A stretch of 63,979 nucleotides of DNA, counting the filler, from Vicugna vicugna (Eukaryota), in the NCBI GenBank assembly GCA_013265495.1. It is 75 parts of 71 records of this genome, joined end to end, with 100 filler letters (N's around TTAATTAATTAA, not from the genome) between each part and the next. Parts side by side here need not be neighbours in the genome. Positions count along the whole stretch, not along the records: positions 4,748 to 5,586 come from PNXW01019801.1; 74 more parts are not named here. One strand, written 5' to 3'. The position numbers were made by a program, and so were the translations under genes. Positions 3,724 through 53,346 of the stretch are shown here, piece by piece (the stretch's first letter is position 1; every line of letters begins with the position of its first letter). The notes below the pieces were generated by a model. It did no database searches. It saw only the letters and a program-made list of their open reading frames with translations, and was not told the origin of the DNA.

Positions 3724-4647
3724 CCTCCCCAAGCTCAGGATTCCGGAACCATTTTCACTGAGTGGGGGAGCCCGCGAGACAACTCCACGCAGCTATCTTC
3801 AGTCAAAAGTGTTCCCTGCTCGGGGAAATCCGAGAAAATTTTTCCCTGACATTTGGGAGGCAGCCTCTGTCACTGGGATATACTGCAACCCCCCCTAGCA
3901 TTCCCTGTCACAGAGAAATGAGGAAAACCCTCAGGGGAGACGAGCACAGGCATTCCCTTAGAACCCACGCGCTGCCGACCGTTGGTGGAATTTCCACACT
4001 CTCAGGATTCCGGAATCATTGTCATTGAGTGGAGGAGCTCGAGAGACAGCACCACGCAGCTCTCTTCATTCACAGGTGTTCCCTGCTCGGGGAAGTCCGA
4101 GAAATAACTTCCCAGAACCTCTGTCACTGGGATATCCTGAAAACCCCATAGCATTCCCTAGCACAGAGACATGAGGAAAACACTCAGGGGAGATGAGCTT
4201 AGGCATTCCGTTAGAACCCATGCGCTGCCGACCGTTGGTGGAACCTCCCCACGCTCGGGATTCCGGAACAATTGTCATTGTGAGGTGGAGCTGGAGAGAC
4301 AACTCCACGCAGCTCTCTTCAGTCACAGGTGTTCCTTGCTCGGAGAATTCCGAGAAATACCTTCCCTGAACTTGTGGATGCAGCCTCTGTCACTGGGATT
4401 TCCTGCAACCCCCCCCTAGCATTCCCTGGCACAGAGACATGACGAAAACACTCAGGGGAGACGAGCACAGGAATTCCGTTAGAACACAAACGTTGCCGAC
4501 CGTTGGTGGAACCTCCCCAAGCTCAGGATTCCGGAAACATTGTCATTGAGTGGGGGAGCTCGAGAGACAACTCCACGAAGCTCTCTTCAGTCACAGGTGT
4601 TCCCTGCTCGGGGAAGTCGGAGAAATAACTTCCCTGACATTGGGGAG
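3724..4647. repeat. 267-bp satellite (~3.5 monomers)
   Basis: CTCAGGATTCCGG anchor at 3734, 4001, 4254, 4522 (267, 253 with a deletion, 268 bp). Confidence 0.95.
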
Positions 4648-4899
4648 NNNNNNNNNNNNNNNNNNNNNNNNNNNNNNNNNNNNNNNNNNNNTTAATTAAT
4701 TAANNNNNNNNNNNNNNNNNNNNNNNNNNNNNNNNNNNNNNNNNNNNCAGGTCCCATAGAGAGGTGAACACACTGATGCAGGAGAGGAGGGACTTACTGG
4801 AGTGATGTCCTCGGGTGGAGAGCTTGATTTTCCAGGAGCAGGTGCGTCTCCTGCACAGAAACAGAGAACAGACTGTGTGCACACATGCATCAGGGTGGG

Positions 4900-5055
4900 A
4901 GCTGCAAGGCTTCTTCTGATCTAATCGTGCATGTTCCAGACATGTGTATTCATCAAGCAAGTCTGTGAGGCCAACCCAGATTTAAGGGAAGGGAAATTAG
5001 AGTCCACCCTCCAGTGAGAGGACCAGCAAGCAATTTGTAGTCATTGTTCATCTCC
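4900..5055. mobile_element. MaLR (MLT1-like) LTR remnant
   Basis: CCCAGATTTAAGGGAAGGGAAATTAGAGTCCACC resembles a conserved MLT1 terminal segment. Confidence 0.45.
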
Positions 5056-5271
5056 TGCTCTTGTCCAGTATTTCCTTATTGATTTACAGAATTTCCTTAC
5101 GGAATCTTTGTGAATCTAATGTCAGTTGCATGGTTTGGAATGACCTCTCCCAGCGTGGCTTTCTTTCACTTCCTTTATGTCTTTCCCCCCTTAGTGACTA
5201 GTGGTTTTTGAGTCTTGTTGAAGAGAGTTTTCTCACCCTCAAGGTCATGAAAATGGTCTCTTAAAAACATT

Positions 5272-5586
5272 AAGCCTCTGGGTCTGTGGCAGCCGCGTTA
5301 GCCCCGCCCGGGGAGCAGAGAGCGAGGGGAGGCGGAGACGGAGGAGGGTCCGAGGATCAGCTGTGGTCCCCGCTGAGCCGCCACCACAGGCGGAAGGCAG
5401 TAGGACTCCAGCGGCGGGAGGAGCCCTATCTTCTGAGGTGGCGGGGCGCTCCTTTCCTTACCCTTTCGGAGCTGCTCCCGCTCCCTCTTCGGAGCCAAAC
5501 TTCATTGTAGGCGCGCCGCCCTGGCGGTGGGTAGCCGGCCTGGCGCAGCCCGGAGGCCTGGGGTGAGGATTGGTTGGTGCTGGCCG
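5272..5586 (+). pseudogene. CTNNB1: CTNNB1 (beta-catenin) non-coding exon 1 (5272-5437) plus start of intron 1, outside its promoter context
   Basis: AAGCCTCTGGGTCTGTGGCAGC...GGCGGAGACGGAGGA...GGCGGGAGGAGCC...CTGAG|GT matches recalled human CTNNB1 exon 1; followed by GGCGCTCCTTTCCTTA...GGAGCCAAACTTC as in intron 1; upstream DNA is AT-rich, not a CpG island. Confidence 0.8.
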
Positions 5587-6847: not shown

Positions 6848-7769
6848 GAATTCGCTCAAAGAGAGTTTTCTAGTGCCAGATGTCCGATTTTAAAACCTAG
6901 TGATACAAAAAACCTATGATGTCAGTTTAAATATTTCAAAGTGTATATATGCCTTGTTTGGTGGATGAAAGTTCACTAATCCACATGCTCACAACTCAGA
7001 AACTCATGTTTCTCGAATCCGTCATGCATGTATCATGTACGGAACACGGANNNNNNNNNNNNNNNNNNNNNNNNNNNNNNNNNNNNNNNNNNNNNNNNNN
7101 NNNNNNNNNNNNNNNNNNNNNNNNNNNNNNNNNNNNNNNNNNNNNNNNNNNNNNNNNNNNNNTCTGAAAATGATGATTCTATATGAAATTATTCCTTTTA
7201 TAGAGGATGAAAGATCAGTAATCCACATGCTCTCAACTCAGGAATGCATGTTTTTCGAAACCGTCATGCATGTAGCATGTAGTGAATACTGAATATCATT
7301 TAGATGGAATCTATTCAAATTACATATCTAAGGTAGAATTCGCTCCAAGAGGGTTTTTCTGGGATCAAAGTGTGATTCTTGAACCTGGTGATAGGAAGAA
7401 GCTACGAAGACAAAGTATATATATTTAAGTGCATAGGTAACTTGTAATGATTGAAANNNNNNNNNNNNNNNNNNNNNNNNNNNNNNNNNNNNNNNNNNNN
7501 NNNNNNNNNNNNNNNNNNNNNNNNNNNNNNNNNNNNNNNNNNNNNNNNNNNNNNNNNNNNNNNNNNNNNNNNNNNNNNNNNNNNNNNNNNNNNNNNNNNN
7601 NNNNNNNNNNNNNNNNNNNNNNNNNNNNNNNNNNNCTGGTGACAGAAACCTATGAAGTCAGAGTAAATATTTCTAAGTGTATATATGCCTTGTTTGGTGG
7701 ATGAAACGTCAGTAATCCACATGTTGACATCTCAGAAACTCATGTTTGCCGAATCCGTCATGCACGTAG
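6848..7769. repeat. AT-rich ~740-bp trimeric satellite (~247-bp subunits)
   Basis: Recurrent GGATGAAAG-N8-ATCCACATGCTC...GAATCCGTCATGCATGTAGCATG motifs; same family as 62147-63434. Confidence 0.9.
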
Positions 7770-10772: not shown

Positions 10773-11456
10773 NNNNNNNNNNNNNNNNNNNNNNNNNNNN
10801 NNNNNNNNNNNNNNNNTTAATTAATTAANNNNNNNNNNNNNNNNNNNNNNNNNNNNNNNNNNNNNNNNNNNNAATCATTTCTTCAGTAGCAAAAGGAGAA
10901 AAGACTTTGTGTTCCCCGCCTCCAACTTTTTTCCTCCACCTTCAGATGTTTCTCATCCCTGGGCAAGGGTAGAAAGCAACTCACAGAATATTATTTTTCA
11001 ATGTTTTTTCCCACTCTGAAGATTGCTTTCCCAGAACCGATGAAGGCTAGAATGGTTTACCTTTCCTGGACTGAGTAGGTGGGGAGGGGAGAGGGGGAGG
11101 GGAGATAATTCAGCAATATTGAACCTAACAGAGACATTAAAAGGTTCTACTCTAAACAGAAAGGAAGCAGGATGCTATAGAAACAGGACAACCATAGTTG
11201 GAAATGCAATAACGAGTTACAAGAGAATAAACATAAAGATGTAAAAATGAAAAAGGACATCAAAATATAAAAAGGCGGAATGGGAGAGGGGAGCAAGAAA
11301 ATATAGATTTTTTTTCTTTCTNNNNNNNNNNNNNNNNNNNNNNNNNNNNNNNNNNNNNNNNNNNNTTAATTAATTAANNNNNNNNNNNNNNNNNNNNNNN
11401 NNNNNNNNNNNNNNNNNNNNNGGTCGACAAACCAGAGTGGCTCGGACTCGTCAGCG

Positions 11457-11499
11457 CTACAGGTCTTTTCCTGCCTAGTGAGTGGCTCTGAAAAGAGCC
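11457..11499 (-). terminator. Histone 3' stem-loop (11484-11499) and histone downstream element (~11457-11470)
   Basis: Minus strand CCAAAGGCTCTTTTCAGAGCCACTCA is the canonical SLBP stem-loop; AAAAGACCTGTAG ~15 nt downstream resembles the U7-binding AAAGAGCTGT. Confidence 0.93.
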
Positions 11500-11534
11500 T
11501 TTGGTTTGTGATGCTCAGGTGGTCCTGAGGCAGC

Positions 11535-11963
11535 TCATTCGCATAAGATGTACTTGATGAGAGCGTTAGTGCCCTCGGACACGGCAGACTTGCCGAACTT
11601 CCCAGGCAGCAGCAGGCACACCGAGCTCTGGATGTCTTCGTAGGTGATGGTGACGCGGTTTTTGGAGCGGGCCAGGCGCGCGGCCTCGCTGGCGATGCGC
11701 TCGAAGATGTCCTTAACGAACGAATCCATGACGCTCACGGCCTCCCGCGAGAGGCTCAGGCCTGTGTGCACCCGCTTCAGCACCCTGCGGAAGTAAGTGG
11801 CGAAACTGGCGAAGCTGTCTGCTGGGCGGCGGCGGCGGCGTTGGCGGCGCACGGGTGTCTCCTGCTTCGGCGTCTTCTGCTCTGGGCTCTTGGACTCGGC
11901 TTCTTTGCGCTCCTCGGTGTCCACGATCTCCTCCGAAGTGCGGGAAGACCACGGCTCAGCCAT
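11535..11963 (-). CDS. H2BW: Histone H2B.W (H2BFWT-like) germline variant, 142 aa, intronless
   Basis: ATG at 11963 in strong Kozak context (GACATGG); MAEP...TSEE...KEA...SFATYFRRVLKRVHTGLSLSREAVSVMDS...LLLPG...SEGT matches H2B.W signature; complete histone fold. Confidence 0.9.
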   Translation of the reverse strand: MAEPWSSRTSEEIVDTEERKEAESKSPEQKTPKQETPVRRQRRRRRPADSFASFATYFRRVLKRVHTGLSLSREAVSVMDSFVKDIFERIASEAARLARSKNRVTITYEDIQSSVCLLLPGKFGKSAVSEGTNALIKYILCE

Positions 11964-12025
11964 GTCGGAGTGTCTCGCCTTCCCCACAGCTCAGAAGGAA
12001 AGGCAGAGGCAGCTGCGAGGACCGG

Positions 12026-12127
12026 CTTATAAAGGCTGCCTTGCCTGACGTCACGGCCAATCTGCAGATCTGATTGGGTAGGATGCGGGGCAGGGAGCCG
12101 TGTCGCTAAGGCAGGCCATGTCACGTG
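12026..12127 (-). promoter_or_regulatory. H2B.W promoter: TATA, CRE, paired CCAAT boxes, E-box
   Basis: TTTATAAG (12026-12033), TGACGTCA (12046-12053), CCAAT (12057-12061), ATTGG (12073-12077), CACGTG (12122-12127). Confidence 0.8.
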
Positions 12128-12508
12128 TCCTTAGATGCCCCGCGGCTTGGCCGCACATCAACCAGTCCGAGTGGCAATCTGGTGACCTTTAAACTTTCCG
12201 TGACCCCCACCAGGTGACCTGTAAACTTTCCATGACCTCCACCAGAAAAGCTTTGCAACCCGCAAGGTCGTGTCGGAAAAGGTCATCCGTTCCCCTCAGC
12301 TGCTTTATGCCTGCCAGTTATGCGTGAGAAGTTTGCAAAGAGGTCAAACCCACCTCTCCTACGCGGAAGAAAACTCACTTTGATCTCTCTGAGAGGGTCT
12401 GACCTCCGNNNNNNNNNNNNNNNNNNNNNNNNNNNNNNNNNNNNNNNNNNNNTTAATTAATTAANNNNNNNNNNNNNNNNNNNNNNNNNNNNNNNNNNNN
12501 NNNNNNNN

Positions 12509-12989
12509 AGTTGGAGCTTGTACCTCCCCATATATATGTATGAAATGGTGTTTACGACTGAAATGAAACTTTGTGTTCCCTTCAAGCTAATTGAATGATG
12601 GCTTTCACACACAATTATCTCTCAGAACTGAGCATGTGGAGAGACGTTCGTTCATCCAGCACAAAGGGAACGGGTTGCAGGAGAAACCCTGACTCTGGTT
12701 TCTCAGTCTGTNNNNNNNNNNNNNNNNNNNNNNNNNNNNNNNNNNNNNNNNNNNNNNNNNNNNNNNNNNNNNNNNNNNNNNNNNNNNNNNNNNNNNNNNN
12801 NNNNNNNNNNNNNNNNNNNAACTTTGTATTCCCTTCAAGCTAGGTGAAGGACGGCTTTCACACACACTTATCTCTCAGAACTGAGCATGTGGAGAGACGT
12901 TCGTTCATCCAGCACAAATGGAACGGGTTACAAGAGATACACTGACTCTGGTTTTTCAGTCTCTTTCCTAGTGCCGGTTTGAAGTGCCT
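12509..12989. repeat. ~248-bp satellite (family E)
   Basis: Two copies of CTCAGAACTGAGCATGTGGAGAGACGTTCGTTCATCCAGCACAAA; reverse complement of 32660-33192. Confidence 0.9.
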
Positions 12990-16272: not shown

Positions 16273-16816
16273 AGGAGCAGACCATGGTCTTAGGGCAAGT
16301 CGGAGATGCTCCGGAGCAGTCTGGCATCCTCCCACCTCCCGGGGCTGTACCTGCTCTCCTAAACCCGGGTATAAGCGGCGGCAAAAACGGGGGGTTCAGG
16401 AACTACTAATAGCGGGATTACCATGAACTACAGCGCCGGCTGCCACCCGCCTCATTTTCCTAACCGGACGCGCGGCCGGGACCTCACCTCCGCACCCCTC
16501 CCTGGGCGCCTCCCCAGCCGCACAGCCCAGGCGTCATCCGCCGGCTCCCCAAGCAGCGCGCCCCCACCATCGTCCCCTGAACTGCCCTGCAGCGGCAGCC
16601 GAGCCGAGGGCAAGCGACGGACCCCAGGCCGTGTTCCTCTTCCAGGAGCTGGTCCGGGAGCAACCAGCTGCCGCCAGCTTCCACGCGTTCTGGGCGGGTT
16701 CCGGGTTCCGCGCGTCTGTCCGTCTGCGCGTGCGCGCCCCTCCTCCTCCAGCCCGCAGTGCAAACTGCTCTGGTGGGTCTCCTGCTTTACCGGACCTGGC
16801 CACTGGGGCTGGGAGG
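16273..16816 (-). promoter_or_regulatory. CpG-island promoter and probable first exon of an unidentified gene
   Basis: High GC and CpG; GC box (16692-16698), ETS CCGGAA (16699-16704, minus), NRF1-like GCGCGTGCGC (16726-16735); minus-strand donor GAG|GTGAGG at 16488/16487. Confidence 0.6.
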
Positions 16817-52012: not shown

Positions 52013-52583
52013 TCCTGTCCGTCCGATCGTCCGTCCTTCGGTCCGTCCGTCTTTCTCCGCCCTCTCTGCAGGGGGCTGTCTTCTTTCGCCACGGGGGCTG
52101 GGCAGGGAGGCCCGCTGACGCCCACCGGCCCGGTGTGGGGTGAAGGGTGGGGCGGGGTGGGGCGTCGGGCCCGGGCTGATGCCTTCCCTCCCGCCGCGAC
52201 GGAGGTACTGGGTGGGTTTGGGCAAGTTGGTGGAGGCAGGAGGGGCGGCCAAGGTCCGCGCTGGGCTACGCCTAGGCCCGGAGGTGGGTGGGTGGGGCTC
52301 AGGGGCCGGCCGGCCGGCGGCCCGGAGGCCCGGGTCCGGACGCCTCCGGGGCCGCTTGCCCCCTGCCAGCGAGCCTGATGCGGGGATCCGAGCTGGGACG
52401 GGCCTGGAGAGTCCCTGGGAGGCGGGCGGCAGGCGCGCGGTGTGCGCCGAGTGCTGTGCGCGGTGGCTTGGCTCGGCTCGGCCCGGCCCGGCCGGGCTCG
52501 GTTCGGCACGGCGCGGGCCGGCCGAGCCGGCGGCAGGGAAGGCGCAGCGCGGGCTCTTGAGGCGCCGCGTGGCGCCTGCTGCT
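52013..52583 (+). promoter_or_regulatory. 5S rDNA upstream spacer with D-box
   Basis: GC-rich spacer; GGCTCTTGAGGC at 52552-52563, i.e. -32 to -21 from the 5S start (human D-box GGCTCTTGGGGC). Confidence 0.85.
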
Positions 52584-52610
52584 GTCTACGGCCATACCAC
52601 CCTGAACGCG
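52584..52610 (+). rRNA. RNA5S: 5S rRNA gene, first 27 nt (truncated by scaffold end)
   Basis: GTCTACGGCCATACCACCCTGAACGCG is the mammalian 5S 5' end. Confidence 0.95.
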
Positions 52611-52710: not shown

Positions 52711-53346
52711 TTTTTTTTTTTTTTTTTTTTTTTTTTTTTCCCTCCCCTCCTCCGGCCTCCTGCCTCCGTCTCTTTAGCCGCCGCCCCTGTCCCCAAGGCG
52801 GCTCCCCGCAGGCCCGAGCACCTCCTGCCCCTCCCCCCCACCCCACGCCACGCCCGCGCAGCGCGCCCACGGCCTGCCCCGACCCCGCGGCAGGCAGCCA
52901 GCCAGCCAGCCAGCCGGCCGGCCTGCCTGCCGGCGGGCGCACCGGCAGCCGCTTCCCTGCCCCTTGGACCTCGCAGCCCGGGCCCCCCACAGCCCCCACA
53001 GCCCCCGGCCCTCCCCTGGGGGGACCGTGAGGCGGGAGGGGCGACGGCCCGACCGCGACTCCGCCGCAGGCCTGGGCTCCCTCGGTCCGTCCTCGTCCTC
53101 CTGCCGCCCGCGGCCCGCGAGCCCTCTCGACGTCCAACGGCGCCCAGCCGCCGGCTGCCCGCCCCAGTCCGCGCCAGCGCCCGCCCGCCGAGACCACCTT
53201 CTCTCCACCAGCCTTGGCCTGCTCTCCCCAGGGAAGGAAACCCGCGGCAGGCAGCCAGCCAGCCAGCCAGCCGGCCGGCCTGCCTGCCGGCGGGCGCACC
53301 GGCAGCCGCTTCCCTGCCCCTTGGACCTCGCAGCCCGGGCCCCCCA
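52711..53346 (+). repeat. T29 tract followed by GC-rich spacer with a ~105-bp direct repeat; probable rDNA (5S) downstream spacer
   Basis: Poly-T at 52711-52739; identical block at 52884 and 53241 containing (CCAG)n; no CpG depletion. Confidence 0.5.

Follow-up and report, generated by a model that had tools for sequence, protein, structure and literature searches.

The window analysed here, a 63,979-nucleotide stretch from Vicugna vicugna, contains a short fragment that appears to pass from host DNA into the 5′ end of the beta-catenin gene (CTNNB1) and on through the exon 1 donor into intron 1. The question raised by this locus is whether such a copy is real and, if so, by which route a piece of CTNNB1 that keeps its intron came to lie in foreign DNA. 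The original prediction was an L1-mediated insertion of an unspliced CTNNB1 RNA.

Fragment and sequence data

Fixed N spacers separate the 75 unplaced fragments, of median length 716 bases, that make up the window. Throughout the window the spacer, N44-TTAATTAATTAA-N44, is artificial and joins unrelated fragments, and a finding that spans it therefore describes no real neighbourhood. Since the pieces are unlinked, the DNA outside 4748-5586 likewise gives no genomic context for the insert. The focal fragment (4748-5586) comprises 839 bases without an internal gap and holds the left end and the first 315 bases of the insert (5272-5586), which is cut by the fragment end. Self-blastn of the window gave no partner for this fragment among the other 74. 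Parts of it were found in 20 of the 24 listed sequencing runs (five organisms), the best runs sharing 0.38-0.44 of its 82 words. Contigs were compared over 4748-5310 in three of the 14 DNA-type runs (X1, X3, and X5, from three organisms) and in the RNA run X15; RNA runs X16-X20 and the insert beyond 5310 lay outside this comparison. The junction was counted as bridged under a rule of 31 letters. The features assigned are as follows.

4748-5271, no strand assigned: host flank, multicopy and unrelated to CTNNB1 (contig identity classes, blastn, Pfam)
4748-4811, no strand assigned: part of the flank found in RNA-library contigs at depth 17-55 (run X15, records 9-11)
5261-5267, plus strand: TT/AAAAA, an L1-endonuclease consensus for a minus-strand nick and the putative start of the target-site duplication (TSD) (sequence)
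5263-5271, plus strand: putative remnant of the left TSD, 7 to 10 bases shorter in the window copy (contig junctions)
5272-5437, plus strand: copy of the non-coding exon 1 of CTNNB1 (published primers, composition, and presumed exon length)
5438-5586, plus strand: sequence past the exon 1 donor, putatively assigned by its position to CTNNB1 intron 1
5456-5464, minus strand: predicted donor-like AGG/GTAAGG, 7/9 consensus (sequence)

Identity of the insert

The assignment to CTNNB1 was borne out by published human primers and by a change in base composition. The available excerpts of PMC4770752, PMC13247265, and PMC7409538 print human CTNNB1 primers that share one 10-letter word with the window. 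Of all places in the window, the forward primer printed in PMC7409538 fits best at 5264-5286, with 17 of 23 letters (15 at the next best place); from 5270 on, 16 of 17 letters agree. Its partner primer agrees at 20 of 23 letters at 5335-5357, in the correct order and on the correct strand (by eye). The GC change point of the fragment was located at 5273-5280, with 5274 as the best position, and separates 45.8% GC on the left from 69.2% on the right. The homology had been said to start abruptly at 5272. A junction near 5274 was upheld, but the exact letter is not fixable at 5272, since CCATTTT lies directly 5′ of AAGCC in the parent gene, as all three published forward primers have it in the excerpts, and the TTTT before AAGCC is thus common to the parent, to the junctions of the relatives, and to the empty site described below.

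Read-through of the exon 1 donor was supported by the sole AG/GT within the insert, at 5437/5438, and by the absence of a continuation into exon 2. The exon 1/exon 2 primer printed in the excerpt of PMC13247265, when set at this point, agrees at 9 of 14 letters before it and at 1 of 7 after it, a placement that is weak alone (10 of 21 letters, compared with up to 15 at chance places in the window). Intron loss, the mark of a classical processed pseudogene, was not found, as shown by this poor match to the start of exon 2 after 5437. The 315 insert bases contain no ATG and no AATAAA/ATTAAA; the longest A-run is 3, and no A- or T-run over 3 occurs elsewhere in the insert. The exon 1 copy has 69% GC and a CpG o/e of 0.68, and the intron 1 part has 69% GC and a CpG o/e of 0.73. 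The exon end at 5437 rests partly on the length of CTNNB1 exon 1, which we take to be ~166 bases. AAGCC is presumably the main human CTNNB1 start site, within 4 bases of which the insert begins; our literature search found no paper confirming this start. The 149 bases past the donor (5438-5586) were inferred from their position to be CTNNB1 intron 1.

Junction and copies

The junction is real. Under the 31-letter rule it is bridged in two of the three DNA runs, by record 8 of X1 (5225-5307) and record 28 of X5 (5186-5307), which come from different organisms and studies, and X3 carries the same junction letters, too few for the rule. With the junction spanned by contigs of two other runs, the suspicion of a chimeric scaffold did not survive. 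An assembly artefact, either a chimera or a wrong flank joined to the true CTNNB1 locus, would suit a window of draft quality made up of 75 short unplaced fragments, and no listed contig spans the whole compared stretch (4748-5310); it is nevertheless highly improbable given the bridging in two other runs, the several sequence variants, and an empty-site paralog. The primer matches, the bridged junction, and this paralog together also confirmed a second locus distinct from CTNNB1.

The original prediction was right about a second locus but overlooked that the insert is multicopy and common to several organisms, which became apparent from the contigs of several runs. The contigs matched numbered 25, 29, and 28 per DNA run, with several identity classes in each (in X1, 9, 6, 7, and 3 contigs at 99+, 95-99, 90-95, and under 90% identity, respectively). 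Relative to long low-depth contigs of the same runs, the junction contigs were 4.3, 6.1, and 6.5 times as deep, which serves as a rough copy measure. At least three junction-bearing forms are present in X1, too many for a single diploid locus. The first resembles the window and has 7 additional letters at the junction (record 8), the second is 10 letters longer there, and the third, also found in X3, has an insert that differs from the window at 8 of 30 letters behind 5304. Host and insert are present together in several diverged copies with the same junction, as defines a segmental duplication.

The description of the flank as AT-rich and repeat-derived was not sustained. Its GC content is 45.8% overall (39% in the last 100 bases), it is multicopy, and no transposon origin was demonstrated; Pfam gave no protein family in any of its three longest open frames. 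Two stretches of the flank, 4952-4994 and 4774-4867, recur at other loci (86-89%) in each of the three DNA runs, with unrelated DNA beyond, and the stretch at 4952-4994 is also present in RNA run X15. They may be remnants of an ancient repeat or gene family within the host segment.

Empty site and original target

Record 7 of X1 (844 bases) aligns to 5163-5268 with 10 differences and then passes into unrelated DNA. After 5268 it reads CTTCCAG TTTTTT and then AAACTTCT into the unrelated DNA, while at the same place the filled copies read TTTCTAG TTTTTT AAGCC and the longer form reads AAAAAC TTTCTAG TTTTTT before AAGCC. Six T are present in both filled and empty sites, from which it was deduced that no poly(T) was added at the left end; the fragment contains no minus-strand polyadenylation signal. 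The empty site was found in one of the three DNA runs, among the matches listed, and is a paralog that is 9% diverged and not an outgroup ortholog. The expected insert-less site was thus found in X1, but as a paralog rather than as an empty orthologous site in an outgroup. Allowing up to 2 mismatches, the motif of its right flank is absent from the window, where 0.70 matches would be expected. A 20-base word from the flank, run against metagenomes, returned three loci; all were chance matches of 20-21 bases and were dropped. The empty site and the longer junction forms further indicate that AAAAACATT, proposed as the TSD, is a derived state produced by later shortening.

The original target was read as TT/AAAAA followed 19 bases on by TTTTTT/AA, which places an L1-endonuclease motif on each strand. 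In X1, X3, and X5, the longer junction form has TT/AAAAA at a distance of 19 bases upstream of the junction. In a background of 43,403 window positions, which include satellites, TT/AAAA occurs 7-21 bases upstream at 380 positions, TTTT/AA at the point itself at 28, and both motifs together at none. The L1-endonuclease motif anticipated at a TSD-like distance was therefore recovered, and on both strands. The target and the parent gene also share TTTTAA, a 6-base microhomology. From TTTT onward they agree at 10 of 12 letters, and beyond TTTTAA at 4 of 6 (P = 0.038 at 0.25 per letter).

Origin of the insert

The junction data and the motif pair favour an L1 insertion. Its direction is not readable from the left end, as each strand carries an endonuclease motif and the same 19- to 21-base duplication results either way. 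On balance, we lean towards L1 TPRT of an unspliced sense CTNNB1 RNA that began at the promoter and probably ended in intron 1, followed by duplication of the host segment. ORF2p would have nicked the minus strand at TT/AAAAA, with priming on the A tail of the RNA or on an A-rich intron stretch. Synthesis of cDNA would have proceeded back to the 5′ end of the RNA. The end of the cDNA would then have annealed via TTTTAA at the plus-strand cut, 19 bases from the first nick, to leave a TSD of 19-21 bases. The host segment would later have been duplicated to roughly 4-6 junction-bearing copies, decayed to different degrees, and in the window copy the left repeat would have become 7-10 bases shorter. 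The 19-base motif spacing fits the range of L1-type TSDs, given as about 15 bp in the available part of PMC2912911 and as 7-40 bp in that of 10.1101/2020.06.07.139212. That CTNNB1 RNAs containing TTTTAA exist is suggested by the excerpt of PMC4770752, in which human RT-PCR primers starting upstream of TTTT were run on cDNA with an exonic partner. The TTTTAA microhomology counts against a sense RNA, since full-length trans-mobilised insertions show the least microhomology in the excerpt of PMC2912911. Moreover, the site being symmetric, the plus-strand TTTTTT/AA could have been the first nick. L1-mediated insertion as originally predicted was thus strengthened by the motif, the empty site, and the second locus, but its start "at the TSS" coincides with the 6-base microhomology and is not specific, as an antisense or DNA-level origin could use the same letters.

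We regard as unlikely a tailless L1 retrocopy of antisense RNA, in which a convergent transcript would begin in CTNNB1 intron 1 and run back over exon 1, and ORF2p would nick the plus strand at TTTTTT/AA and prime on the internal A-run opposite the TTTT of the parent. No special isoform would then be needed to explain why the intron was kept and why the copy stops at the start site. A junction exactly at an endonuclease motif, primer-template complementarity, and the lack of an added tail all agree with this, as does the lack of any other A- or T-run over 3 in the insert, and the minus strand of the empty site matches 9 of 9 letters (by eye) of the tailless consensus TT/WAAAAWW given in the excerpt of PMC5322556. 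Convergent promoters may affect more than one-quarter of active start sites, at a median distance of 413 bp, according to the available text of PMC11735407. However, no antisense CTNNB1 RNA was found in the literature (CTNNB1 has 0 mentions in the PMC11735407 text), the tailless cases in the excerpt of PMC5322556 derive mostly from small structured RNAs, and the upstream TT/AAAAA would be a second coincidence. Sense and antisense RNAs each need one of the two motifs by chance, and the sense RNA was preferred because reaching the 5′ end of a short RNA was judged commoner than tailless priming. A polyadenylated antisense source is unlikely in view of the six T in both sites and the lack of a minus-strand signal in the fragment. 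Slightly less probable is a DNA-level copy, made by microhomology-mediated repair or template switching and then spread by segmental duplication. It explains the kept intron, and the agreement at the junction (6 letters exact, 10 of 12 in all) suits homology-guided copying within host DNA that is demonstrably duplication-prone. It requires, however, that the break hit the transcription start by chance and left the promoter out, and that it did so where each strand carries an endonuclease motif, for which the background gave 0 of 43,403 positions.

Composition and putative transcription

The 315 bases of the insert have 69% GC, with o/e values of 0.70 for CpG, 0.92 for TpG, and 0.83 for CpA. 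A CpG island has a GC content over 50% and a CpG o/e over 0.6 across more than 200 bases, and judged by composition the insert lies within these limits and is still island-like. The CpG decay that had been proposed was therefore seen in part (o/e 0.70), but strong decay was rejected, there being no excess of TpG or CpA. In the 30 letters behind 5304 the window copy has four CpG and a sister copy one, numbers too small to test. At one position pair, one copy has CA where the other has TG, which suggests that an ancestral CG was lost on two occasions.

The insert is most likely non-functional, with no coding part in the portion seen. It is quite doubtful that it acts as a CpG-island promoter of a new multicopy transcript, which would start in the intron-1-derived part, run backwards, and be spliced from a predicted donor at 5462/5461 across the exon 1 copy to the host flank near 4811, in reproductive tissue; if it did, the CpG-keeping copies would be the active ones. 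At least one such minus-strand donor arose in 24% of 2000 shuffles of the insert, indicating a weak site. In the RNA library X15, contigs are present for 4748-4811, where two variants merge into one, and for a distant 43-base paralog; these contigs show neither strand nor level and may stem from DNA present in the library. X15 gave no cover on 4812-4951 or 4995-5310, an absence that proves nothing, as the filter drops records. This run contains about 17 of the 82 words (share 0.21), of which the RNA-covered compared part offers about 1.4. The remaining words may come from the insert beyond 5310, which would need a copy within about 3% of the window copy, from filtered records, or from the parent's own mRNA. 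Under a spliced promoter model about 11 words would be expected (for 17 or more, P = 0.037), and in DNA run X1 up to 33 of 36 words are explained by the left part, leaving little room for insert words; the word-count excess, taken with the X1 word share, weakens this model. The acceptor that this model requires at 4811 is CCG in the window; CAG is found there only where a copy carries the 4813 variant, and the RNA contigs are without the 4799 variant that is linked to the 4813 variant. A 53-base minus-strand exon at 4850-4798 was rejected as a candidate, its donor at 4793 being changed in all matched contigs of four runs; Pfam was blank for it.

Other features of the window

The fragment at 11422-12408 carries an intact, divergent histone H2B-like gene of 142 amino acids on the minus strand (ORF 11535-11963; Pfam Histone, E 6e-21), with a histone 3′ stem-loop behind the ORF at 11459-11504 (Rfam RF00032). 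We take this ORF to resemble testis H2B variants of the H2B.W type. A 268-base tandem satellite is present in 3.5 copies at 3724-4644 and in 12 other fragments, the 13 satellite fragments forming one blastn cluster; the terms "267" and "268 bp" are absent from the alpaca satellite paper PMC13751797. Further repeat clusters comprise 12, 11, and 4 fragments (1558-2627, 6848-7769, and 12509-12989, with related fragments) and include an AT-rich short-period repeat and a repeat of roughly 250 bases. GC-rich and CpG-rich fragments lie at 52013-52610, 52711-53346, and 16273-16816 (CpG o/e 0.77-0.87). The first two presumably represent ribosomal DNA spacer, and neither gave an Rfam hit.

Relation to known systems and significance

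Intron-keeping retrocopies are known and easily overlooked, according to the available parts of PMC5470649 and 10.1101/2020.06.07.139212, the latter noting that retrocopy pipelines require lost introns. Like the intron-keeping L1 retrocopies in the excerpt of PMC5470649, the CTNNB1 insert corresponds to part of a Pol II transcript, lies at an L1-endonuclease site, starts near the TSS of the parent, and lacks the upstream promoter. Unlike those, it has no spliced junction or coding sequence in the part seen, so that the intron-loss test cannot apply; it was later multiplied by duplication and is known from its left end alone. With the tailless retropseudogenes of Noll et al. 2015 (PMC5322556, as excerpted) it would share the TT/WAAAAWW junction, target-template complementarity, and the lack of a tail if the RNA was antisense; those derive mostly from small RNAs and sense mRNAs, whereas here the RNA would be a putative promoter-overlapping antisense RNA. 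Retrocopy-borne CpG islands are also known (excerpts of PMC4122923 and PMC4772013), and in the PPP1R26-derived island of RB1 intron 2 described there a CpG-rich 5′ segment was likewise moved and can stay island-like. The CTNNB1 element differs in being multicopy, and the likeness is drawn from sequence composition. A promoter inherited from the parent accounts for only about 3% of expressed retrocopies in the available part of PMC4772013. Among the top 20 titles, none concerned a CTNNB1 copy in camelids or whales, and among the first 12 of 38 matches nothing was specific to polyadenylation in CTNNB1 intron 1; a full-text word count gave 0 mentions of CTNNB1 in PMC13751797, and no passage on partial processing was found in PMC2584115.

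The CTNNB1 5′-end copy is thus an old, multicopy genomic fossil of a known kind, probably L1-made, which calls for no new mechanism. An A tail within intron 1 at its far end would make it a germ-line record of transcription that terminated prematurely in intron 1 of beta-catenin; if that end is tailless, it would be a clean, internally primed antisense retrocopy of the sort missed by pipelines that require lost introns. The two-strand endonuclease motif provides a small example of how the direction of reverse transcription is not readable from one junction. The multiplied insert would matter more if it acted as a promoter. In practice, assays of promoter methylation, ChIP, or PCR in these animals can be misled by the additional CTNNB1 exon 1 copies.
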